Below are positions 51,662 to 64,000 of a stretch of DNA of 64,000 nt, one piece after another (position 1 is the stretch's first letter; the number at the start of each line of letters is the position of its first letter). Origin of the DNA: an uncultured Bacteroidaceae bacterium (GTDB lineage Bacteria; Bacteroidota; Bacteroidia; Bacteroidales; SM23-62). The position numbers and the translations under genes are program-made. Location of the stretch: contig CAYOPZ010000013.1 in NCBI GenBank assembly GCA_964406005.1, positions 886-64,885 of the forward strand, given 5' to 3'. The notes beneath the pieces are model-generated. The model made no database searches, had not been told where the DNA came from, and was given only the letters and a program-made list of their open reading frames with translations.

Positions 51662-52129
51662 TTATTCTAAAAATGCATTGTACATCCAGATCATTTTTTC
51701 CTGCTCGTCAATGAATCCGGTGACCAGATCAACGGTTCCGTCATCGCCGGCATCCGCTGCCATGGCTGAAATTTCCCGTTCATCCCCGAGCAATTGCTTC
51801 AGCCCTGCCAGTACTTCCCTTACCGTTTCTTCTGCAGAGGAAACATTCTCTTTTTCCGGCATGCCTGCCAGTTTCAGATATTTCGAAAAGGCATGTGTCG
51901 GGGTCCCTTCCAGCATGATTATCCTTTCGGCAATTTCATCTGCCTTGTCGTTCAAACCGTCGTAAAGCTCTTCGAACTTTTCATGCAGGAGGAAGAATTG
52001 TTTCCCGGTAATGTTCCAGTGAAATCCCCTTACATTCATATAAAACACCTGCACATTGCTTAGCAGTGCATCCAGTTTTCCGACCATCTTTTCAGTATAG
52101 TCTTTGTTTAATCCGATTTGAGTTTCCAT
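51662..52129 (-). CDS. dps: Dps DNA-protection/ferritin-like protein
   Basis: FHWNITG..FF.LHEKFEELY, DEIAERI and EK.IWM motifs. Confidence 0.95.
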   Translation of the reverse strand: METQIGLNKDYTEKMVGKLDALLSNVQVFYMNVRGFHWNITGKQFFLLHEKFEELYDGLNDKADEIAERIIMLEGTPTHAFSKYLKLAGMPEKENVSSAEETVREVLAGLKQLLGDEREISAMAADAGDDGTVDLVTGFIDEQEKMIWMYNAFLE

Positions 52130-52195: not shown

Positions 52196-53332
52196 CTAAG
52201 GCTCCTGCAGATAATGAATGAACAGGACCACAGGGCGATACACGGCATGTGCAAATTTGGTGAAAATGAGCAACAGCACGAGCTCCATGGAAATCACGGT
52301 ATGGATGACAAATACCACCTGGTTCATCAATGTATCGGCATTCAGGGTCACAGCCGTTTCAAGCCAGAAACCCGTGAAGCCGGCCAGCCAGATGAATGCC
52401 AGGAAAAACCAGTCGGCCGTGCTGCTTTTTGCATAAAAATGCGTTGGCCTGGTCAGCCGGTAATATATGGCAAGACTTGCACCGTACATCATCAGCAACC
52501 CTGTGACGGTGCCCAGCAGCCTGGACGGCAGCCAGATGTCGGTCGCCGGATCCTTGAAGATAAAATCCAGGATGGTTGCCAGCAGCAAACCCAGGAAGCC
52601 GATCATGATGGCCCAGTGCACAAACCATGGCTTGATGAACCAGGGTTTTGCCGCCCAGTAAGCATCGTCCTGCCTGTCACATTCCCTGTACCTTTTCATA
52701 GTCACGATCTCACCGGCGGTTTTTACAACGGCTTTCCATATTTTCACCGCTCCAGCCTTGCTTCGTTCCTGTACCTCGCCCGTTCTGTCTTTCCTGAAAC
52801 GGGACAGCATTTTATAAAGCCCGAGAACGGTGATGATCCCGATGAAAACAAATACATACAAACCGAGGTCGTGAACCACATCGAACGGCAGCAGGCTGAA
52901 GATCCACCTGGCGACCTCATGATCCGGTTTCATGGTCATCAGGAGGAAAAACAGTACCATGGCAATGACCAGGGTGATTCCCGTAAATGCAAACGGATTC
53001 CGGAACATAAGCCGGGTCAGGCCCGTAGGTTCGTAATGTGCAATGGCATACCTGCGAAGTGCGGCTACATAGTCTCCGGGCTCGGCTTCCCGCGGGCAGG
53101 TCTGGGAACATTCGCCGCATCCGTAGCAAAGCCAAATCTCCCTGCTCGAAAGGATCTTGTCTTTCATTCCCAGCATACCGTACCTTATCAGGTTTCTGGG
53201 GAAAAATGCATTTTCTTCGGACAACTCACAGATGGCGGTGCAGTTCCCGCAACTGTAGCAGGCACTGAAATCCACGGTGCCGTATGATCGGATTTCCTCT
53301 GCCAGACCCGGATTTAATACGGCTGTACTCAT
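52196..53332 (-). CDS. QmoC-like membrane subunit: N-terminal HdrC-like 2x[4Fe-4S] domain plus NarI/HdrE-like cytochrome b domain
   Basis: CYSCGNCTAIC and WLCYGCGECSQTCP; several TM helices with His in VVHD, FVHW and VIHT; C-terminal KFAHAVYRP. Confidence 0.8.
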   Translation of the reverse strand: MSTAVLNPGLAEEIRSYGTVDFSACYSCGNCTAICELSEENAFFPRNLIRYGMLGMKDKILSSREIWLCYGCGECSQTCPREAEPGDYVAALRRYAIAHYEPTGLTRLMFRNPFAFTGITLVIAMVLFFLLMTMKPDHEVARWIFSLLPFDVVHDLGLYVFVFIGIITVLGLYKMLSRFRKDRTGEVQERSKAGAVKIWKAVVKTAGEIVTMKRYRECDRQDDAYWAAKPWFIKPWFVHWAIMIGFLGLLLATILDFIFKDPATDIWLPSRLLGTVTGLLMMYGASLAIYYRLTRPTHFYAKSSTADWFFLAFIWLAGFTGFWLETAVTLNADTLMNQVVFVIHTVISMELVLLLIFTKFAHAVYRPVVLFIHYLQEP

Positions 53333-53613
53333 TTTTTTAATTGATAGAAATAATATTCATCCATGTCATCCAGCTCCCCGGCAGTGATCAGGCCATACTT
53401 CCTGAGCGACATGACAAAATAGGTCGTTTCGGCCTTGTCGGTGCCCAGCTTTTCAGCCAGTTCGGGAATGGTCAGGGGGCCTTCTTCCAGTGCCTGGCGG
53501 ATGGCCCTTTTCATCCGGTTGAACCGTTTCAGCTCCTCCTTTACAGGGGAGGGAACCTGACGTTCATTTTTTATCAGGTCAAGGGTCGGTGTCGATGTTT
53601 TTTTCTTTTCCAT
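53329..53613 (-). CDS. Small winged-helix (wHTH) protein
   Basis: IRQALEEGPLTIPELAEKLG...VMSLRKYG; translationally coupled within the operon. Confidence 0.75.
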   Translation of the reverse strand: MEKKKTSTPTLDLIKNERQVPSPVKEELKRFNRMKRAIRQALEEGPLTIPELAEKLGTDKAETTYFVMSLRKYGLITAGELDDMDEYYFYQLKK

Positions 53614-53614
53614 A

Positions 53615-55348
53615 TTACTGTTCTTCCGGGATCATCGATTCGATCATCGCTTCGATTTCATCATTTGTATACCCGATAAGGTCAATGGCATCTTCCGGGC
53701 ATACGGGATTGCACATGCCGCATCCTTTGCAGCTTTCCGTGACAACCACGGCGACCTGTTTCCCGTTGTGGCTTTCCTCTTTAATGGCATCGAAGGGACA
53801 TATCCCCGAACACAGGTCGCACCAGGTGCATTTTGCAGGATCGATGCGGGCAATGGTCGGGTCCAGTTCGATCTTTTCTTCCCTCAGCAGGGCATGCGCC
53901 TTGGATACGGCGGACAGGCCGGATTTTACCGATTCCGTAATGTTTTTCGGACCCTGGCTTGTCCCTGCAATAAAGACCCCGTCAATAACCGTTTCGACGG
54001 GACGCAGCTTGGGATGCACTTCATTGAAGAATTTATCCCTCCCCAGGGGGGCTTTAAACAATTCCGCTGTTTTTTCATATCCTTCGGAAGGGACCATTCC
54101 GTTTACCAGAACCAGAAGATCGGGCCTTACTTCAAGTTCCATGCCCATGGTTAGCTGGTCCCTGACTTTAACGGATATTTGCTGATTTTCCATGACAACA
54201 TCCGGGGGATCGTCATCGTCGAATTTCAGAAAAATATCCCCGTTCCTGGAAGCTTCCTCATAGAGCAGCTCATACTTGCCGTAGGTCCGCATCTGGCGGT
54301 ACAGATGGATGCACCGGATACCCGGGTTTGCCTTCCGGATCTGAATGGATGTATCCAGTGTTATGGTACAGCAGATACGGGAACAGTACTTATTGTCGCC
54401 TTCTATCTGGCAGCTTCCCACACAGTAAATAAAGGCGATCTGGCGGACAGGATTCCCGTTCAATGATACAATGGCGCCTTCCTTTTCCAGTTTTTCTTTA
54501 AGTTCGTCAAGTGTGATGACAGCAGGATGCTTGCCGTAGCCGAACTCTCCGTCTCCCGGCCTGTACGGATCGAATCCCGTGGCCAGGATCACCGCGCCTG
54601 TCCGGATCTGATGGTGTTTACGGTCCTGCCCGGGATCGGGGCGATCCGTGAAATCCAGGTTGAAATTGCCGACGCTTCCGCTGACGGCCTGAATCTCGGC
54701 GCCTGTATGTATCCTGATGTTTTTATTTTCTGCCAGTTCATGGTACAGTTCGTCCACAATTTCCTTTCCGCTCCTGTCGCTTCCGGTCAATTTTCCCCAG
54801 AGGGGGATCTTTCCGCCTGCGACATGACTTTTTTCGAGAAGGTATACACTGGTTCCCAGTTGTGCCAGGCCAAGTGCCGTCCGCATTCCCGTGATCCCCG
54901 CACCGATCACCGCCACAGAATTTTCGGCCGTGATGCTGATGGGATCCAGGGCGCGGGCAAACTGCGCTCTGGTGATGCCGGCTTTGATCAGTCTTATGGC
55001 TTTTTCAGTGGCCCTTTCGGGTTGATCCGAATGCGCCCATGAACCCTGTTCGCGGATATTTACATGAACGTACCGGTAGGGATTCATCCCGGCGCGTTTT
55101 GCTACGTTCCTGAAGGTCGGCACATGCAGTTTCGGGGAGCAGGAAGCAACGACCAGCCCCTCCAGCTGTTTGTCCCTGATGTCTTCGATGATCTCATTCT
55201 GCGCCGAATCGGAACAGGCGAACATGGTCGTTTTCAATACGTGAACCCCTTCGATGTCCGCAACGGCCGCTTTTGCCTTTTCCACATCCACGACATCGGA
55301 TATGTTGGATCCGCAATGGCATATATATACCCCTATTCTCTTCTTCAT
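53615..55348 (-). CDS. hdrA: HdrA/QmoB-like flavo-Fe-S subunit (N-terminal cluster domain, FAD domain, C-terminal ferredoxin)
   Basis: GVYICHCG, VASCSPK, NIREQ.SW.H, IGAGITG, CVGS, CSRICC, EVHPKLRPVET, CTWCDLC and CKGCGMC. Confidence 0.87.
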   Translation of the reverse strand: MKKRIGVYICHCGSNISDVVDVEKAKAAVADIEGVHVLKTTMFACSDSAQNEIIEDIRDKQLEGLVVASCSPKLHVPTFRNVAKRAGMNPYRYVHVNIREQGSWAHSDQPERATEKAIRLIKAGITRAQFARALDPISITAENSVAVIGAGITGMRTALGLAQLGTSVYLLEKSHVAGGKIPLWGKLTGSDRSGKEIVDELYHELAENKNIRIHTGAEIQAVSGSVGNFNLDFTDRPDPGQDRKHHQIRTGAVILATGFDPYRPGDGEFGYGKHPAVITLDELKEKLEKEGAIVSLNGNPVRQIAFIYCVGSCQIEGDNKYCSRICCTITLDTSIQIRKANPGIRCIHLYRQMRTYGKYELLYEEASRNGDIFLKFDDDDPPDVVMENQQISVKVRDQLTMGMELEVRPDLLVLVNGMVPSEGYEKTAELFKAPLGRDKFFNEVHPKLRPVETVIDGVFIAGTSQGPKNITESVKSGLSAVSKAHALLREEKIELDPTIARIDPAKCTWCDLCSGICPFDAIKEESHNGKQVAVVVTESCKGCGMCNPVCPEDAIDLIGYTNDEIEAMIESMIPEEQ

Positions 55349-56661
55349 GACAGGTTCCTTAAATAGGCGGCCGCTTCGGCAGACGCATTCCCGGCGCTTA
55401 ATATGGTATCCGGTATGTCCATCGGTCCCGCGGCGGTTCCGGCCACAAAAACACCTTTCATGGAGGTGAGCGACGGGGAGACCAGTTCGTCGGATTGTTC
55501 AATGTAATCGAATTCGTTGGTCAGCGGCCGGTTTCCGTTGAAGGCATCCATAAAGCTCGTATTGGGCAGGAGCCCCACGGAAAGTACCACCAGGTCGTGC
55601 TCGGAGGTCTCCGGCCTGCCTCCGTTTTCTATGTTCTCGTAATGCAGCAGCAGGTCCCCGTTTTCCATTTCCGTGATCCTCGCCACCCGTGATTTGATGA
55701 ATTCAACCCCCATTCCCCTTGACTGTTCATAGAATTCCTGGTATCCTTTTCCGAAAGCCCGGATATCCATGTAATAGATCGTCACGTCGGCCATGGGCAG
55801 CGATCCCATGATCAGCTGGGCCTGCTTGATCGAATACATGCAGCAAACCTGCGAGCATAGCGGGTTTCCCATGGTGTGATCCCTCGACCCCGCACATAAG
55901 ATGTAGGCTATGTTGTCAGGCATCTTTCCGTCGCCGGGCCGCAGGACCGTGTTATAGGGCCGGGTTGGGACCAGCTGCCGTTCCATATGCATGGAATGAA
56001 CCACATTTTTAAATCTGCCGTATCCGTACTGCAGTTTGGTCTCCGCATTGAACAAACGGTAACCGGTGGCAACGATGACGCTCCTGGCTTCGACCGGGAC
56101 GGGGATTTCTTTCTGTGTGAAATCTATGGCATCGGCAGGACAGGCTTTTTCACAGGCGCCGCACAATGTGCAATTGTCAATATCTATCGCGGCGACCCTG
56201 GGCGAGGCCGTACTGAACGGAATGAAGGCCGCTTTTCTCCCCACCAGGTCATACTGGTACTGGTCACGTACGCTGACGGGACAGGCATCCTCACACAACT
56301 GGCATCCCGTGCAATCGTCCTCCCTGACATATCTCGGTTTCTTGATGACCGTCCCCCGGTAGTGGCCGTTGAAGGGTGTGAGGTCCCGGACTTCGGACCA
56401 GGTCATCACCGTGATGTTCGGATGCCTGTCGGTTTCCGACATTTTCGGGGTCGATATGCATGCGGCACAGTCGAGTGTGGGAAAAACCTTGCTCAGGTGG
56501 ATCATTTTTCCGCCGATGGAATAATCCTTTTCCACCAGCAAGACCCTGAACCCCATGTTTGCTAAGCTCAGCGAGGCTTCTTCACCGGCGATCCCGCCTC
56601 CGATCACCAGGGTGTCGTATTGTACGGGTTCTCCTTTGGTATTCTGACTGCTTTTACTCAT
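55345..56661 (-). CDS. hdrA: HdrA/QmoA-like flavo-Fe-S subunit (FAD domain with inserted ferredoxin)
   Basis: IGGGIAG, KVFPTLDCAACI, CTGCQLC, CTLCGAC, CAGSRD, CSQVCCMYSIKQ and YMDIRAFGKG. Confidence 0.88.
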   Translation of the reverse strand: MSKSSQNTKGEPVQYDTLVIGGGIAGEEASLSLANMGFRVLLVEKDYSIGGKMIHLSKVFPTLDCAACISTPKMSETDRHPNITVMTWSEVRDLTPFNGHYRGTVIKKPRYVREDDCTGCQLCEDACPVSVRDQYQYDLVGRKAAFIPFSTASPRVAAIDIDNCTLCGACEKACPADAIDFTQKEIPVPVEARSVIVATGYRLFNAETKLQYGYGRFKNVVHSMHMERQLVPTRPYNTVLRPGDGKMPDNIAYILCAGSRDHTMGNPLCSQVCCMYSIKQAQLIMGSLPMADVTIYYMDIRAFGKGYQEFYEQSRGMGVEFIKSRVARITEMENGDLLLHYENIENGGRPETSEHDLVVLSVGLLPNTSFMDAFNGNRPLTNEFDYIEQSDELVSPSLTSMKGVFVAGTAAGPMDIPDTILSAGNASAEAAAYLRNLS

Positions 56662-56673
56662 TTCATACCCGAA

Positions 56674-57099
56674 TTATGCACTTGTAACTCCGGATCCTTC
56701 CTCCTGCAATGCCGACAATTCCTTGCTGAAGTTCTCGATATGTTTCACAAAGGCTTCTGAGCATACCGAGCAAATGGCGGCCATTTTAAGACGCCTGGGC
56801 GGGATCCCCTTCTCCTTCATGAGCTGATGGGTTTTTGTAACAAGATTTCCCGTGTTGGTGGTGCATGCATCGCTGTAAGGGCAATCCGTACCGTCGGCTG
56901 CGATAAAAACGCCATCGAACCCCTTTTCAAGGGCATGCAGTATCCACCTGGGCTTTATACTGCTCGAACAGGGAACTGAAATGCTGCAGGCACCGGGTGA
57001 ATAGTGCATTTTCAGCAAACCGGCAAGATCTATGGCCGGGTCCGAGATTTTTTCAGTGGAAAAGACCAGAATACTGGGATGAAATTGCCGGTCTGACAT
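56674..57099 (-). CDS. mvhD: MvhD/FlpD-like hydrogenase iron-sulfur subunit with atypical Cys pattern
   Basis: DLAG....Y, VPCS, ILHALEKGFDGV, DC.Y and GI...RL motifs. Confidence 0.78.
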   Translation of the reverse strand: MSDRQFHPSILVFSTEKISDPAIDLAGLLKMHYSPGACSISVPCSSSIKPRWILHALEKGFDGVFIAADGTDCPYSDACTTNTGNLVTKTHQLMKEKGIPPRRLKMAAICSVCSEAFVKHIENFSKELSALQEEGSGVTSA

Positions 57100-57101
57100 T
57101 C

Positions 57102-57353
57102 CTACCCCTTTCTCAGATAGATCCTGAAATAACCGTCTTCCTCCACCACGCCTACGTATTCATGCCCTTTCTTCTGTGCCCATTTGGGGATGTCCCTCTT
57201 GGTCCCCTCGTCGGCTGAAAGCACTTCCATGAGCTGGCCTGTGGAAATATTGGCAATTTCCTTTTTTGCCGCCAGCAGGGGGCCGGGGCATGCCGTTCCC
57301 CTTGCGTCAACCGTCTTGTCGACCGGAAGTGTTTTTAATTCATCAGCATTCAT
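57102..57353 (-). CDS. tusA: TusA/SirA-family sulfur carrier
   Basis: VDARGTACPGP motif; EVLSADEG...DIPKW. Confidence 0.92.
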   Translation of the reverse strand: MNADELKTLPVDKTVDARGTACPGPLLAAKKEIANISTGQLMEVLSADEGTKRDIPKWAQKKGHEYVGVVEEDGYFRIYLRKG

Positions 57354-57375
57354 CGCTTTTTGTGTTTATGGATTA

Positions 57376-57789
57376 TTAAATAAACAGGTGCACATCGGCT
57401 TCCTGTGCAGAAGTTATGTATTCTCCGATGCCGCAGATGTCGTCGCCCAGTTCGTTGAAATCCTCGAGCTTTTCTCCGCCCCATATCTTACCTGCAAGCC
57501 CGCATATATGGATCTTTACATTGGTCATTTCCTTGGCTTCCCTGAAGAACTGCTGCCAGGTGTTGACCTTCAGCCTTTCGAGGGAAGCGAAAAATTCATC
57601 CTTCAGGTGAGGCAATTCTGCCATGGTGCCCTTTTCATTGATATTTTCCTTTTTGAATGCCCTGGCTCCCATAAGCAGGACGAACACATCCACATCCATG
57701 TCGTCGGCTGCTGCACCGCTCAGGATAATTCCTGCTGCAGTCAGTTTATCGACGCTCCCGGAGAAGAGTGCCATTGTCATCTTTTTCAT
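57376..57789 (-). CDS. DsrE2-like (DsrE/DsrF/DrsH) sulfurtransferase
   Basis: FSGSVDKL....I..GAAA, ICGLA conserved Cys and C-terminal LFI. Confidence 0.85.
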   Translation of the reverse strand: MKKMTMALFSGSVDKLTAAGIILSGAAADDMDVDVFVLLMGARAFKKENINEKGTMAELPHLKDEFFASLERLKVNTWQQFFREAKEMTNVKIHICGLAGKIWGGEKLEDFNELGDDICGIGEYITSAQEADVHLFI

Positions 57790-57911
57790 AATGATATTGA
57801 TTTAATAATGATAAATAATCGACACTGCAAAAATCAGTATAATACCTTTTCATTGTCGGGTTGTTCACGTGATGTTCCCGATGGTTTTCAAGTGATATTA
57901 TTCATCCCTGG

Positions 57912-57931
57912 AATGAGACAATCATCACATT
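57912..57931. promoter_or_regulatory. CRP/FNR-type box AA-TGAGA-CAATCA-TCACA-TT
   Basis: One mismatch to TGTGA-N6-TCACA, in the divergent region between dsrE2 and the Crp/Fnr gene. Confidence 0.7.
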
Positions 57932-57968
57932 TTATTAATTTTAAACCTGCTTACTAATTGTTATTACA

Positions 57969-58658
57969 ATGAGAGGACAGGAGATCAAGTGCAAAGATTG
58001 TATTGTAAAGTCCATCCCCGCTGAAAAACTGACGACCGGGGAACTGGATGTCCTGAACAACAACTGTGCGAGGATTGCTTTCAGGAAAGGGGAAAACATC
58101 ATCAAACAGGGGGCTTTTACAACCAATATCGTCTATATTAAATCGGGACTGGTCAAGGAACATATGAAAGGGCCCAACGGGAAGGACGAGATCCTGAAAA
58201 TCACAAAGGCCCCGGCATATATCGGGGTTCCCGCGGCATTGGGAGGACGGGTTCATACATACTCCTGCACGGCCCTGGAGCCCGCGAGCGTTTGTTTCAT
58301 TGACCTGCGTGTCTTCAACGACCTGTTGCTGTCCAATCCTTTTTTTTCCAGGGAACTTATACTGAACCTGAGCAGGGACCTGCTCGAGCATTTCACAAGG
58401 TGTGTCAACAAGACCCAGAAACAGCTCCACGGGAGCCTGGCCGAAGCACTTTTGTACTTATCTGAAAAAATTTATCGTTCCGGTACCTTTAAATTGTCCC
58501 TGACAAGGACAGAGCTGGGAGCCCTGATCGGTACAACCCGTGAAACCGTAACGAGGATACTGCATGAATACACGGAAAACGGATGGATAGGCATCCAGGG
58601 CAAAACCGTGAAGATCCTTAAAAAGGACATGCTTCAAAAAATCTCGGATGCGGGATAG
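57969..58658 (+). CDS. Crp/Fnr-family transcriptional regulator with N-terminal CxxC
   Basis: CKDC, cNMP-like domain (RKGENIIKQG...SGLVK) and HTH LTRTELGALIGTTRETVTRIL. Confidence 0.92.
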   Translation: MRGQEIKCKDCIVKSIPAEKLTTGELDVLNNNCARIAFRKGENIIKQGAFTTNIVYIKSGLVKEHMKGPNGKDEILKITKAPAYIGVPAALGGRVHTYSCTALEPASVCFIDLRVFNDLLLSNPFFSRELILNLSRDLLEHFTRCVNKTQKQLHGSLAEALLYLSEKIYRSGTFKLSLTRTELGALIGTTRETVTRILHEYTENGWIGIQGKTVKILKKDMLQKISDAG

Positions 58659-59984: not shown

Positions 59985-62900
59985 TTATTCCTTTATGAAT
60001 TTCCGGTTGATCACACGATCTTCCTTAACAATCCTGATGAAATAGATACCTGCCTTCCACTCCTTAACATTGAATTCCTGCCTCACTGATCCGGGTTCCG
60101 AAATAAATTGATGCACACGAATCAGTTGTCCCGTTTCAGAGTAGAAGCTGACAGAGGTCTTTTCCCTGGCCGTTGAATGAAATTCAATGGTTACGGTCTG
60201 CGAAGCCGGATTGGGATAAATTTCAATATCCCTGAGGGTCAGGGCATTGATCCCGGATACCGGTTCATTCGACCATTCGGCCTGAAAGCCTGTCCCGGTA
60301 ATGGTGTCGTTCGTGGTGAAACGGATGAACATCGAGTTGCCGGATCTGACCAGGGCGGGAGGGGGACCGTCATTATTGTACTGGCCAATTAAAGGAGCTG
60401 TTGCATCGCTTCCGTTGTATACCCTTACAAAATCCCCGGCTTTGATGTCAAATGGCTCGTCAAAACTCAGGTAGATGCTGTCCACACCGGTCGGCAGCAG
60501 TGTCCATGAGCAATCCAGGTTGTTCCTGTACAGATTGTTCGTGCAGCCGAAACTGAATGTGCCGCTTGCCTCGAAATAGGTTTCCTGTCCGCAGGCCGGG
60601 CAGTACACGAACAGATCGATGGAATCCCTGCCTGTGCAGCCGTATTGATTTGTCCCGACGAGGATGTAGGTAGTGTTTTCATTGGGAGAGGCCGTAACCT
60701 GGGCGCCCGTGGTGCCGCTCAAACCGCCTGCAGGGCTCCATACATAGCTGTCGGCCCCGGAGGCATTCAGGCTGGTGTTGCTTCCCCGGTCGATCGGGTT
60801 CCGGACGGCTGTGATGCCGACCACCGGGTTGGGGTGGATCACAATGGTCACCGAGTCGGATTTGTCACAACCCGTGGAGTCGATGGTTTCTGTCAGGTAA
60901 TATTTATAGGTTTCCGGAACCACCGGATGTACGACCGGGTCTGCCTGCGCGGAAGCCAGGTCTCCCTGGCTGGATGTCCAGGAGTAGCTGTGGGCCGTGT
61001 TTTCTGCGGTTCCCAGGTGAAAGTCCCGGGAGTCTGCTTCACAGATTTCCTGGTCCTCAAGTACGGCCGGATCCGGAACAGGGTTTATGGCCAGTGCAAG
61101 CTGTTTGTTCAGGCTTTCGCATCCGTCTGCCGTCTGTGTGGCATAATAGGGATATATACCGACTTCCGTTTCGCCGGTTGCATAGCTGTTCCCCGATCCA
61201 AGCAGGGTGGACCGCCCGGCATCCGCGTACCAGTTTATGCTGCTTCCTGCCGCAGTGAGATCGGGAACGCTCTCCCCGTAGCAGACTGCCTGGCTGTCGG
61301 CAACCGGTGCATCGGGCCTGGGCTTGATCCGCAGGGTATCGTATCCGGCTTCACTTTCGCAGCCGGATACCGTTTGTGTCGGATAGTAGTAATAGTATCC
61401 CGCAAGCGTATCCCCGGTGGAATAGGTATTACCGGTGTGGACCGGGGTATTCAGCGCCTCGTCCTCATACCACTGTATATTTTCCCCTGAAACGTAAAGG
61501 TCCGGCACGTTCTCCCCGAAACAGGAGACGGAAATGTCGCCTGCGGGCGGATCCGGCTGGGGATGGATGGTCAGCCGGCTTGTATCCGCATCGCTCTCGC
61601 AGCCGTCCGTGGTCTGGGTAACGTAGAATGCCGTGTCAACGGCGCCGGAAATACCGGATGCATAGCTGGTTCCCGAACCCACCTGGTTTGTCAGCCCCGG
61701 ATCGGAGTACCACTTCAGGTCCGTACCCGTGGCCGTGAAATCCGGTGTCGGTTCATATTCACAGATGACCGAATCAGAGGCGGGCGGGATCGCCGGTGTC
61801 GTTTTGATGGTCAGGGTGGCCGAGTCGGCCCGGCTCTCGCTTTCGTTGATGGTCTGGGTCACGTAGTACTTGTAGGATCCCGCCGCCGTCTGTCCGGTGC
61901 TGAAGGAATTCCCGGCAGCCAGCATACTCGTAAGCGCCCTGTCTGCATACCATTTAATGCCGCTGCCCGTGGCCGTCAGGGGAGGAATGGATCTTGTCGT
62001 ACACCCCGAGGCATCATTCGCAACCGGGGGCAGGCAGAATTCGTCCGCCCCGATATCCGGGGCAGTGGCATCTCTCATTTCTCCATCGATATCATCGGTG
62101 ACTTCAGAAAGCGGTGTGCCGGCATCATTGAGAAGCGGATCCGGGAAATGCGGATCACCGGCGGATGGCAACCCGGGATCGATCGAAAGAGAATTTGCAT
62201 CCAATCCGGATGCGGACCTCCAGGCCGCGAGGTCAGACCGGCCGGCAAGATTCCAGAAACCCAGGGTGTCCCCTGATGTATACAGGTCATTGTAATCGCT
62301 CGAAATCCCGGTAGTCTGGTCAGCATAAAAGGAATACCCATTTGCCGAATTCATCAGGATGTTGTTGTATACCTCTATGTCCGAACTTGTGGAACGTATG
62401 TATATTGACTTGGAAGTTATTTGATTACCAGTGATTTCTACTGTGTTATTGAGTACCTTGGTATAATTCGACGAGCGCACATATATTCCCTGTCCATAAG
62501 TTCCCGTGGATTCGATGTTCGTCCTGACGTAATTATTCGATACGATCCCCTCTTTTCCCGGCTGGCCGTCGCAACTGAACAAATAGATGGCATAGCATTC
62601 CTTACTTGAACCGGCGACAACCCGGTTCTTATCCACGAGCAACGCATCATCGCCATAGTACAGGACCAGGCCCGAGTATGTTTGAGTGGTACCCGTGATG
62701 CAGCGGTTGTTCCTTACGACAGGTGCAATACTGTACCGCAATCGTATTCCGTAGGACAATTGATCAAGGCATTCGTTATTCTCAAGAATGAACCCCTTTG
62801 CATACTCACCGGACTGTCCCTGCAGGTAAACCGCATTGCTTCCGTACCTGAACAGGTTATCCGATATCTCTATGCTGTCTCCCACCCAATCGGTCGTGCC

Positions 62901-64000
62901 GTTCATTAAATATCCTTCAATAACCGAAGCGTATTGCGTGCCGATAAACCGATTGCCGGCGAATTCCAGGTTCCCGGAGCTTCCCCGGATGTCGAAAATG
63001 GTTGCATAATCCGTTCCTTCCGACTGGAATGTTAAATTGCGGAATGCCAGATGCCGGGCTTCATCAAGGCGTACCGTAAAGTTATCACCGGAACCGCCTG
63101 GCGAATAGGTCAGGATTGCCAGGGAACTGTCTCCTGAAGCCGATTGGAATGTAACCGTATTGATTCCGGAGGAATTGACTATTGCCGGAATGGTAATTTG
63201 TTCCGTGTAGGTACCGTCCTCCACATTAAATGTCACAGCCCCTCTTAAGCCGCCATCGATCAGCGCCTGGACCGCATTCGTAAAGTCCGGATAGTCACCC
63301 GACGAACCGATGGTATAAGCTCCTCCCAGTGCGGGATAAACAAATTCGTCGGCACCCATGCAGGGCGCGGACAGATCCCGGGCTTCCCCGTCAATATCGT
63401 CCGGGATGTCGGAGCTTAACGGGGTGCCTGACTGCAGACCGGTATTTGCAGTATGGAGGTTCGAATTGCTGAAGAAATAAGGGTCCACTGATATTGAATT
63501 CATCCCCTGGCCGGAAACGGACCTCCAGGAGCTGAGATCAGTTGTTTCTTCACCCCAGTATGCAAACTGGGGGCCGGTTGCATACAAATCGTTGAAATCG
63601 CTTGTAATTCCGCTGGTTGTCTCATTGTAGATCGTATGTCCGCCGGACTGGTTGGCAATGACGTTGTTCTTGATCTCAACCTGGGAATGGCTGTTTTTGA
63701 TATGCATCGATTTTCCTCCGGCAGAATTACCGGTCAGGTTTACGGTGTTGTGATAATATTTTATGTAGCTGTTGTTATCCGATACAATGCCATTCTGACT
63801 ATAGCCGACCGAGTGAATACGGATGAAGTTGTTGCCGATGAGGATTTCCTTTCCGGAGGCACCCTCGCAATAGCCCATCGAAATCCCGTTTCCACCGTAA
63901 TTATTCTCCTTTTGTATCTCATTGTCCTTAATAATGCATTTATTATAGCAATAACTGGCGCTGATGCCGTAGAAAGCCGAACTCAGAACATTGCTCTCTA
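59985..64000 (-). CDS. Large T9SS type-A cargo protein: parallel beta-helix modules, Ig-like repeats, CUB domain, CTD; 5'-truncated by the window edge
   Basis: The frame is open to the window edge. It has DIDGE.RD..AP..GADEF twice, YY.TQT..GCES repeats, a CUB domain (Y.NN.DCSW...DFV.VY.G...F.T......GF) and a CTD (IYPNP...GIYFIRI...KFIKE). Confidence 0.9.
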   Translation of the reverse strand, partial: ESNVLSSAFYGISASYCYNKCIIKDNEIQKENNYGGNGISMGYCEGASGKEILIGNNFIRIHSVGYSQNGIVSDNNSYIKYYHNTVNLTGNSAGGKSMHIKNSHSQVEIKNNVIANQSGGHTIYNETTSGITSDFNDLYATGPQFAYWGEETTDLSSWRSVSGQGMNSISVDPYFFSNSNLHTANTGLQSGTPLSSDIPDDIDGEARDLSAPCMGADEFVYPALGGAYTIGSSGDYPDFTNAVQALIDGGLRGAVTFNVEDGTYTEQITIPAIVNSSGINTVTFQSASGDSSLAILTYSPGGSGDNFTVRLDEARHLAFRNLTFQSEGTDYATIFDIRGSSGNLEFAGNRFIGTQYASVIEGYLMNGTTDWVGDSIEISDNLFRYGSNAVYLQGQSGEYAKGFILENNECLDQLSYGIRLRYSIAPVVRNNRCITGTTQTYSGLVLYYGDDALLVDKNRVVAGSSKECYAIYLFSCDGQPGKEGIVSNNYVRTNIESTGTYGQGIYVRSSNYTKVLNNTVEITGNQITSKSIYIRSTSSDIEVYNNILMNSANGYSFYADQTTGISSDYNDLYTSGDTLGFWNLAGRSDLAAWRSASGLDANSLSIDPGLPSAGDPHFPDPLLNDAGTPLSEVTDDIDGEMRDATAPDIGADEFCLPPVANDASGCTTRSIPPLTATGSGIKWYADRALTSMLAAGNSFSTGQTAAGSYKYYVTQTINESESRADSATLTIKTTPAIPPASDSVICEYEPTPDFTATGTDLKWYSDPGLTNQVGSGTSYASGISGAVDTAFYVTQTTDGCESDADTSRLTIHPQPDPPAGDISVSCFGENVPDLYVSGENIQWYEDEALNTPVHTGNTYSTGDTLAGYYYYYPTQTVSGCESEAGYDTLRIKPRPDAPVADSQAVCYGESVPDLTAAGSSINWYADAGRSTLLGSGNSYATGETEVGIYPYYATQTADGCESLNKQLALAINPVPDPAVLEDQEICEADSRDFHLGTAENTAHSYSWTSSQGDLASAQADPVVHPVVPETYKYYLTETIDSTGCDKSDSVTIVIHPNPVVGITAVRNPIDRGSNTSLNASGADSYVWSPAGGLSGTTGAQVTASPNENTTYILVGTNQYGCTGRDSIDLFVYCPACGQETYFEASGTFSFGCTNNLYRNNLDCSWTLLPTGVDSIYLSFDEPFDIKAGDFVRVYNGSDATAPLIGQYNNDGPPPALVRSGNSMFIRFTTNDTITGTGFQAEWSNEPVSGINALTLRDIEIYPNPASQTVTIEFHSTAREKTSVSFYSETGQLIRVHQFISEPGSVRQEFNVKEWKAGIYFIRIVKEDRVINRKFIKE
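61100..62030 (-). repeat. Four intragenic 80-aa Ig-like repeats, period 240 bp
   Basis: TQT motif codons at plus-strand 61132, 61372, 61612 and 61852. Confidence 0.8.

Follow-up and report, generated by a model that had tools for sequence, protein, structure and literature searches.

What does a membrane complex of the Qmo type do when its genes are accompanied by those of sulfur carriers instead of those of adenosine 5′-phosphosulfate (APS) reductase? This question is raised by a seven-gene cassette in a stretch of 64,000 nucleotides (the window) from an uncultured Bacteroidaceae bacterium (Bacteroidales; SM23-62) from sediment, corresponding to positions 886–64,885 of contig CAYOPZ010000013.1 in assembly GCA_964406005.1; the contig (C13) is part of a 3.2-Mb assembly (G000) with a completeness of 98.6%. 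The canonical (type I) QmoABC of sulfate reducers and Chlorobi links the quinone pool to APS reductase, and HdrB is the catalytic CCG subunit of canonical heterodisulfide reductase (Hdr). An earlier prediction made from the letters of the DNA alone (the original prediction) had read the cassette as a Qmo-like complex acting on persulfide bound to TusA and DsrE. The genetic link between a Qmo-like complex and these two carriers is well supported, and is described here together with the features of the individual proteins. As to function, we put forward, at about even confidence for and against, a menaquinone-linked HdrA-type complex that works in the reductive direction on TusA/DsrE-bound sulfane sulfur as its cytoplasmic partner and is under Crp/Fnr control.

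Gene content and organization of the cassette

All seven genes are on the minus strand between positions 52196 and 57789, in the order dsrE2B-like, tusA, mvhD-like, hdrA-like 1, hdrA-like 2, winged-helix (wHTH) and qmoC-like, and consecutive genes are spaced by 22, 2, 12, −4, 1 and −4 nt respectively. A Crp/Fnr gene is divergently transcribed on the plus strand, with 179 nt between its start and dsrE. Protein labels derive from Pfam and NCBIfam profile searches and from sequence matches in the Protein Data Bank (PDB), and the features are as follows, in the direction of cassette transcription.

57969–58658, plus strand: Crp/Fnr-family regulator, 229 aa (cNMP_binding 56.1 bits, HTH_Crp_2 56.0 bits)
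57914–57929, minus strand: CRP-type palindrome TGTGATGATTGTCTCA, with one mismatch to TGTGA-N6-TCACA, starting 140 nt upstream of the dsrE start
57376–57789, minus strand: DsrE2B-like sulfur transferase, short type, 137 aa (DrsE_2 40 bits, DsrE 23.4 bits; PDB 2qs7_A, E = 8e-17)
57102–57353, minus strand: TusA sulfur carrier, 83 aa (PF01206 87.7 bits, cut-off 28.6)
56674–57099, minus strand: MvhD-like subunit, 141 aa (FlpD, PF02662, 96.4 bits; PDB MvhD 5odc_D, E = 7e-11)
55345–56661, minus strand: HdrA-like flavoprotein 1, QmoA-like, 438 aa (NF040770, HdrA2, 457 bits, model positions 132–560)
53615–55348, minus strand: HdrA-like flavoprotein 2, QmoB-like, 577 aa (NF040770 475 bits; PDB HdrA, E = 1e-103)
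53329–53613, minus strand: Cys-free winged-helix protein, 94 aa (weak MarR and HTH_20 matches)
52196–53332, minus strand: QmoC-like membrane subunit, 378 aa (NF038018, qmoC, 190.7 bits, cut-off 300)

The open reading frames (ORFs) lie exactly where the original prediction had placed its seven tightly packed genes, with gaps of −4 to 22 nt, and both the ORFs and the family matches agree that dsrE and tusA lead the operon. The divergent regulator, described there as a Cys-containing member of the Crp/Fnr family, indeed has five cysteines and both cNMP_binding and HTH_Crp_2 domains, and profile searches confirm that neither an aprA nor a CCG gene is present in the window, the genome-wide matches being located on other contigs. 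Among the cassette proteins only the QmoC-like subunit has hydrophobic segments.

Conservation and distribution

A sample of 301 genomes across the order Bacteroidales was searched for the QmoC-like protein, and a match of any kind was found in 79 of them. Only 13, including the genome of the window, contain a QmoC of the cassette type (48–100% identity, E-values of 3e-129 or better), the next best matches having at most 34% identity; one more genome, of the same family, contributes a 96-residue QmoC-like fragment with 71% identity. The gene order dsrE-tusA-mvhD-hdrA-hdrA-wHTH-qmoC is kept in all 11 of the loci with enough DNA among the 12 other genomes of this group. A wider scan at the species level, with one genome per species, found 309 relatives, of which the best 80 were examined; for 60 of these loci 6.5 kb or more of DNA is available before the QmoC match, and in 59 all six upstream genes are present in order, the single exception having no detectable tusA. 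A chance arrangement is thus unlikely, and the linkage of dsrE and tusA to the complex, whose absence from homologous loci had been named in the original prediction as evidence against it, is conserved.

Carriers of the complete order are not restricted to the Bacteroidales, and include metagenome-assembled genomes (MAGs) labelled Rectinemataceae (Spirochaetota), Anaeromyxobacteraceae (Myxococcota), Deltaproteobacteria and Cytophagales, these taxon labels being the depositors' record titles. Two cultured organisms also carry it, Prolixibacter bellariivorans ATCC BAA-1284 and P. denitrificans DSM 27267 (L060 and L061), and further record titles among the best 80 of the 309 relatives are Chlorobiota, Syntrophothermus and several families of Cytophagales.

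Two subtypes are evident. In 37 of 65 relatives HdrA-like 1 is a long protein of about 915 aa, in which a GltD/NfnB-like NAD(P)H module (Fer4_20 plus Pyr_redox_2) is inserted near residue 175–190 (for example at L041 4721–7468); the wHTH is fused in all 37 of these, and the DsrE is of the full-length DrsE_2 type in all 34 with a called dsrE ORF. The short HdrA-like 1 of the window type is found in 26 of the 65, and the window subtype combines a short DsrE and an unfused wHTH with an HdrA-like 1 that has no NAD(P)H module. Both DsrE types are carried by Prolixibacter.

The neighbourhoods of the best 80 loci contain some recurrent genes. In 18 loci the gene directly before dsrE encodes a cysteine desulfurase, nine have a gene for an HdrD-like CCG protein near the cassette, and Nitro_FeMo-Co-type small proteins are encoded nearby in 14 and 7; methyltransferase, TauE and DUF302 genes occur in 14, 7 and 7 loci respectively. 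We also note a protein of about 113–130 aa with no Pfam match, whose gene flanks long-form cassettes on one side or on both in 14 of the 80 loci (for example at L055 1402–1731 and 10747–11088).

The HdrA-like pair and the membrane subunit

HdrA-like 1 contains the HdrA core with its FAD motif, a DCxxC motif, an inserted 2×[4Fe-4S] ferredoxin domain and the C-x12-C-x3-CC signature. It aligns with residues 141–559 of the solved HdrA 8rvv_A (E = 1e-107), with FPTLDCAAC opposite FPTLDCSMC, and all of its 14 cysteines are conserved in 65–66 of 67 relatives. HdrA-like 2 has an N-terminal 4-Cys domain, the FAD motif, the C-x12-C-x3-CC signature and a C-terminal 2×[4Fe-4S] ferredoxin domain, and lacks the DCxxC motif, the inserted ferredoxin and a fused MvhD domain; its 16 cysteines are invariant in 69 of 69 relatives. 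As judged from these motifs, the features of an HdrA homodimer are split over two paralogues, as they are in QmoA and QmoB. In many relatives HdrA-like 2 is longer, at about 645 aa (for example Prolixibacter L060 6730–8667), with an additional 60–70 residues or so after about residue 237 of the window protein, which appear as split tblastn matches.

In the QmoC-like protein an HdrC-like 2×[4Fe-4S] domain is joined to a cytochrome b domain that is NarI/HdrE-like. Eight cysteines and the histidines H154, H239, H344 and H362 are invariant in ten aligned orthologues, a pattern consistent with a pair of [4Fe-4S] clusters and a pair of b haems.

The MvhD-like and winged-helix proteins

The canonical MvhD cysteine set consists of an N-terminal CxxC, PCS and GCHxGDC, which we take to be the ligands of a [2Fe-2S] site, and this set is incomplete in the MvhD-like protein. 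When compared with solved MvhD and with the Mvh-linked MvhD encoded elsewhere in the same genome, the cassette protein lacks the CNWC at the N terminus as well as the GC of GCHxGDC, and has gained SDAC and a C-terminal CSVC. Five cysteines are invariant in 57 of 57 homologues, C44 and C73 being retained from the canonical set and C79, C110 and C113 being new. On inference alone, the five-Cys MvhD-like protein is a candidate for a sulfur-reactive site. A prediction of the complex of the MvhD-like protein (45-row alignment) with TusA (42 rows), run without controls, gave a score of 0.00, the mark for support being 0.32, and counts neither for nor against a contact.

The predicted model of the winged-helix protein has a pLDDT of 87.8, and a fold search with it gives only a loose resemblance to ArsR/SmtB and MarR folds, at TM values of 0.5–0.6. 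In 68 related loci the wHTH occurs as a C-terminal fusion to HdrA-like 2 in 42, as an ORF of its own in 22 and is undetected in four; the frequent fusion suggests a domain or subunit of the enzyme and not a repressor or other regulator. A role as a DsrD-like activator was considered and rejected, as there is no DsrD match in Pfam and the fold search returned only the ArsR/SmtB and MarR repressors in that TM range.

The sulfur carriers

The DsrE protein of the window is a short one, and its DrsE_2 match (40 bits against a cut-off of 25) spans only 50 residues. The best PDB match is to 2qs7_A, a protein that is named DsrE2B in the accessible text of Tanabe et al. 2024 (PMC11094781). The dsrE2 label of the original prediction therefore holds at the level of the family, the best structural match and the presence of Cys96, with weak Pfam scores. 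Of the 60 cassette DsrE proteins, all have Cys96 and 51 have Cys119, and the Cys22 of the TusA CPGP motif is found in 53 of 53 cassette TusA proteins. The cassette TusA is the only TusA match in the whole genome, and it reaches 34 bits with the YedF selenium models, for which the cut-off is 110. A six-frame genome search with PF02635 overlooked even the weakly matching DsrE of the window, and is thus silent on TusBCD or DsrEFH. In E. coli, TusA–DsrE-type relays supply tRNA thiolation.

Other sulfur genes are present at a distance. A cluster on contig C16 (L129 3863–10884, minus strand) includes a Cys/Met PLP enzyme, a methyltransferase, a transporter of the Na/sulfate-symporter type and an ECF sigma factor, and also holds a split yeeE/yedE sulfur-transport pair and two rhodaneses, with no TusA of its own. 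In G054, an aprA-positive genome of the Bacteroidales, the genes tusA-yeeE-rhodanese-rhodanese-porin(O_P)-rhodanese are found directly upstream of the cassette (L043 132–5121).

The regulator and its putative operator

A divergent crp gene accompanies the cassette in 37 of the 56 public loci that extend at least 7.5 kb upstream, and in 8 of 11 loci from the order sample. Oxygen sensors of the FNR type have four cluster-binding cysteines, three N-terminal and one central. The window protein scores 76.5 bits on the Fnr model, for which the cut-off is 228, and of its five cysteines C8 is present in 43, C11 in 46 and C109 in 45 of 47 cassette-adjacent homologues. The conserved set is one fewer than the FNR pattern, and the regulator could be either a cluster-based or a thiol-based sensor, as far as its sequence indicates.

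The palindrome between the regulator and dsrE has counterparts in other loci. When no more than one mismatch to TGTGA-N6-TCACA, which we take to be the CRP-type consensus, is allowed, a box is present in 29 of 39 crp–cassette intergenic regions (19 of them with a perfect box) as against 3 of 780 shuffles, and the FNR-type box TTGAT-N4-ATCAA shows no enrichment over shuffles. In the genome as a whole a perfect TGTGA-N6-TCACA occurs once (C67:382), which is about the level of chance. One-mismatch boxes were found in two of four upstream regions checked, namely that of the window and one upstream of hdrA on contig C45; none was found upstream of aprB or of the CCG gene, and no regulon is drawn. 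The public sequencing runs that cover the 6.5-kb stretch are four DNA runs from two studies, one of them probably its source, with no RNA run listed.

Other Qmo-type sets in the genome

The genome encodes two further sets of this general type. On contig C7 (L004 8313–15118) the genes aprB-aprA-qmoA-qmoB-qmoC form a canonical operon, with both AprA (875 bits, cut-off 642) and QmoC (352.4 bits, cut-off 300) above their family cut-offs, and with an MvhD domain fused to QmoB at residues 580–712. The second set is on C45 (L006 10902–19022) and comprises hdrA (606 aa), a qmoC-like gene (382 aa), a second hdrA (578 aa), mvhD, mvhG, mvhA and a maturation protease gene; it is divergent from a Rex-type regulator and adjoins hypF, and from its gene content it looks like a quinone-linked, possibly bifurcating, hydrogenase. 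The window proteins are 42%, 36% and 28% identical to those of the C45 set, and 31%, 29% and 26% identical to those of the C7 set.

A quick maximum-likelihood tree of 40 QmoC-type proteins, rooted only at the midpoint, places the cassette proteins in a clade of 21 rows (SH-aLRT 95) and the C45 protein in a second clade of 18 rows (SH-aLRT 94), with the aprBA-linked QmoC alone on a very long branch. The clade of the C45 protein is common in the order, as judged from the 301-genome sample. The original prediction had held that aprAB elsewhere in the genome, together with a position of the cassette within genuine Qmo clades, would speak against its reading; aprBA is indeed present on C7, but the cassette QmoC belongs to a separate clade.

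Since aprBA is followed by its own qmoABC, APS reductase has a canonical Qmo of its own, and the same conclusion is favoured by the distribution of aprA, which is present in 18 of the 301 genomes of the order sample and in 2 of the 12 other cassette genomes, so that cassette and aprA occur together in 3 of 13. The claim that this Qmo-shaped complex is not the partner of APS reductase is therefore upheld, and so is the claim that no HdrB or CCG gene is attached to it, as the only CCG-domain protein of the genome is encoded in an etfBA/acyl-CoA dehydrogenase cluster. Profile searches of the genome found neither dsrA nor a Sat-type ATP sulfurylase, nor any sulfite reductase of the NIR_SIR type. 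We also note that dsrA is found in none of the 17 other aprA-bearing genomes of the order sample, and that a PAPS_reduct ORF is located 2.9 kb upstream of aprB on C7. A literature search on aprBA-qmoABC in the Bacteroidales found nothing relevant.

Relationship to known systems

With type I QmoABC the cassette shares two complementary HdrA-derived flavoproteins, a subunit in which HdrC is joined to a dihaem cytochrome b that provides the menaquinone link, and an MvhD-type module. It differs in that its partners are TusA and DsrE and not aprBA, in that its MvhD is separate, encoded upstream and rewired in its cysteines, where in type I this is the C-terminal domain of QmoB, in having a winged-helix module after, or fused to, the QmoB-like protein, and in a QmoC-like subunit that falls below the family cut-off (190.7 versus 300 bits). 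The methanogen Hdr complexes (PDB 5odc, 8rvu, 8rvv, 9sfi and 7bkb) provide the best solved relatives of the HdrA-like pair (E of about 1e-104 to 1e-107), the MvhD-like protein and the HdrC-like domain, and all of the cluster-binding cysteines of methanogen HdrA are kept, with the FAD motif, DCxxC, signature and ferredoxins spread over the two paralogues. Unlike MvhADG–HdrABC, the cassette has neither HdrB nor a hydrogenase, its two HdrA paralogues are unequal, its HdrC domain forms one protein with a membrane cytochrome b and its MvhD is without part of the canonical cysteine set.

A type II Qmo, described as HdrA-like, has been noted in Ammonifex degensii and 'Ca. Vulcanisaeta moutnovskia', and its role is given as unknown in the accessible text of Neukirchen et al. 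2023 (PMC10504309). The QmoA/B-like proteins of the cassette are likewise nearer to true HdrA, with 457 and 475 bits on NF040770 compared with 320 and 412 for the C7 pair, and by score the cassette appears to fit the type II description, the comparison with the named type II sequences being one of description only. It differs in its linkage to TusA and DsrE, which is not mentioned for type II in that accessible text. The sHdr–LbpA system also resembles the cassette in the genetic association of its Hdr-type complex with TusA and a transferase of the DsrE family, and sulfur is passed along TusA/DsrE2/DsrE3 carriers there, according to the accessible text of Tanabe et al. 2024 (PMC11094781). However, sHdr is soluble and requires sHdrB1/B2, sHdrC1/C2 and lipoate-binding proteins, whereas the cassette has two HdrA paralogues and a quinone-linked cytochrome b, and no CCG subunit was detected in it by a profile search, in which LbpA was not among the targets.

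No published description of the cassette was found in the literature searched, which did not extend to the supplements of PMC10504309. The view that the architecture is uncharacterized thus stands insofar as the literature searched contains no characterized equivalent, and requires qualification insofar as type II Qmo had already been noted (in the accessible text of PMC10504309). We consider the cassette to be a real, conserved and uncharacterized variant of the Qmo/Hdr scaffold, with the persulfide-reductase chemistry as a hypothesis.

Proposed function

In the wiring of Mvh–Hdr, MvhD feeds the HdrA flavin, the HdrC clusters form the high-potential branch and the C-terminal ferredoxin domain the low-potential branch. 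By analogy, the high-potential branch of the cassette would end at cytochrome b and menaquinone, and TusA and DsrE occupy the place of the hydrogenase in the gene plan; it is on these grounds that an exchange of electrons between menaquinone and sulfane sulfur is proposed. The operon would encode a single membrane-bound complex, in which the two complementary HdrA-like flavoproteins would replace the HdrA homodimer on the Qmo plan, with electrons running between them and the menaquinone pool via two [4Fe-4S] clusters and a pair of b haems in the QmoC-like subunit. The rewired five-Cys site of the MvhD-like protein and the winged-helix module would complete the cytoplasmic part, whose partner would be neither APS reductase nor hydrogenase, but sulfane sulfur on the active-site cysteines of TusA and the DsrE2B-like protein. 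This sulfur could be supplied by thiosulfate, polysulfide or cysteine, and its reduction to sulfide, the most probable direction in this fermentative anaerobe, could serve either as an electron sink or in the detoxification of reactive sulfur. Expression would be governed by the divergent Cys-bearing Crp/Fnr protein through the TGTGA-N6-TCACA box. The sulfur context fits this proposal, with the sole TusA of the genome in the cassette, the split yeeE and two rhodaneses on C16, the neighbouring genes in G054, and the cysteine desulfurase and HdrD-like genes at 18 and nine of the 80 loci respectively.

Several points weigh against this proposal. The potential of menaquinone is about −75 mV and that of the sulfane sulfur/sulfide couple about −270 mV, so that menaquinol alone is a poor donor and cannot drive the reduction; a second, lower-potential donor is therefore probable, and this might be ferredoxin where HdrA-like 1 is short and NAD(P)H where it is long. 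Profile searches of the cassette found no recognizable site of persulfide or disulfide reduction and no HdrB/HdrD CCG domain, and every cysteine of both HdrA-like proteins is a canonical cluster ligand. As the NAD(P)H module is present in 37 of 65 relatives but not in the window, the redox partners vary by subtype, and the cysteine desulfurase gene in 18 of 80 loci argues for internal, cysteine-derived rather than environmental sulfur in those relatives. Finally, the only TusA of the genome may also perform housekeeping thiolation. A more specific version, which we regard as quite unlikely, is a confurcating (or, in reverse, bifurcating) sulfane-sulfur reductase, in which menaquinol and a low-potential donor would join at the HdrA flavin and the MvhD-like protein would be the point of sulfur entry. 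HdrB would not be the entry point in such an enzyme, and its low-potential donor would again be ferredoxin for the short subtype and NAD(P)H for the long one.

The main competitor to sulfane-sulfur reduction is a reaction in the opposite direction, in which sulfide or carrier-bound sulfur would be oxidized and the electrons passed to menaquinone, possibly being split with ferredoxin at the HdrA flavin, in parallel with the presumed use of H2 by the Mvh-linked paralogue. The nearest paralogue is in fact that hdrA-qmoC-hdrA-mvhDGA hydrogenase cluster on C45, which puts TusA and DsrE in the place of the donor; electron flow from sulfide to menaquinone would be downhill, HdrA-like 2 retains the C-terminal ferredoxin domain through which electrons reach ferredoxin in the Hdr of methanogens, and P. 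denitrificans, which reduces nitrate, would have an oxidant. Oxidation beyond the sulfane level, however, needs catalysts of the sHdr or rDsr type, and neither HdrB nor dsrA was found in the genome, and most carriers look like fermenters of anoxic habitats according to their record titles, so that we hold oxidation to be unlikely. It is also conceivable, but improbable, that the complex is biosynthetic, with no part in energy metabolism or detoxification, and supplies or removes electrons for the release or transfer of cysteine-derived sulfur on TusA/DsrE to the synthesis of thio-cofactors, tRNA or Fe-S clusters under anoxia. Such a role would suit the only TusA of the genome, the desulfurase gene directly upstream of dsrE in 18 of the best 80 loci and the tRNA-thiolation relays of E. 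coli, but a single biosynthetic step would hardly warrant a membrane complex of the respiratory type that takes seven genes, about ten Fe-S clusters and two haems. A cassette found in only 13 of 301 genomes of the order is not a housekeeping one, and its own dedicated Crp/Fnr control also speaks against this role.

The two remaining explanations concern the nature of the cargo and of the partner. The carriers might be loaded with a thiosulfonate (TusA/DsrE-S-SO3−) or with a selenium or tellurium species that is reductively cleaved, and Metallosphaera DsrE3A and TusA do carry thiosulfate, as stated in the accessible text of PMC11094781. Transporter genes of the yeeE family beside the cassette in G054 and elsewhere in the genome of the window, the TauE, DUF302 and methyltransferase genes (7, 7 and 14 of the best 80 loci) and the weak YedF scores of TusA would accord with such a cargo. 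These scores are far under the cut-off (34 versus 110 bits), though, none of the yeeE, TauE, DUF302 and methyltransferase neighbours is present in the window, and aprA, whose product is a possible acceptor of the released sulfite, is found in only 3 of the 13 cassette genomes of the sample; we therefore consider these cargoes very improbable. That the cassette is simply an ordinary QmoABC serving an APS reductase encoded elsewhere is scarcely credible. It has a Qmo-like subunit plan, and aprBA is present on C7, but the latter has its own qmoABC, with a QmoC that passes the cut-off at which the QmoC-like protein of the window fails, the two sets have only 26–31% identity and are placed apart in the tree, and 10 of the 12 other cassette genomes show no aprA.

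Neighbouring genes

A Dps/ferritin-like gene at 51662–52129 (minus strand) starts 66 nt past the qmoC-like stop codon and is on the same strand, a position shared only with the nearest relative, G208, and with none of the 80 public loci. On the other side, beyond the regulator and a gene for a 395-aa protein with no Pfam match, positions 59985–63878 (minus strand) are occupied by a 1297-aa ORF with internally repeated segments.

Biological implications

Sulfate respiration and methanogenesis both depend centrally on Qmo and Hdr complexes, and there is still debate about how these link quinone and flavin to a substrate in the cytoplasm. The window clearly exemplifies the short subtype, in which the NAD(P)H module is missing, and its genome, with three Qmo-type sets, allows one scaffold to be compared in three settings: with APS reductase, with hydrogenase and with sulfur carriers. 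The version with sulfur carriers is widespread in Bacteroidales of anoxic sediments, peat and lakes and reaches other phyla, and the cultured Prolixibacter carriers open the question to experiment. If the confurcating reductase were real, fermentative anaerobes would have a new kind of sulfur respiration, with an enzyme that needs no molybdenum as an alternative to polysulfide reductase. The Qmo scaffold would then have a third output in addition to APS reductase and hydrogenase, and a single genome would contain all of them. If carrier-bound sulfur is either reduced or oxidized by these complexes, many presumed fermenters would join the cryptic sulfur cycle, and these are organisms that surveys of dsr, apr, psr and sqr genes overlook.

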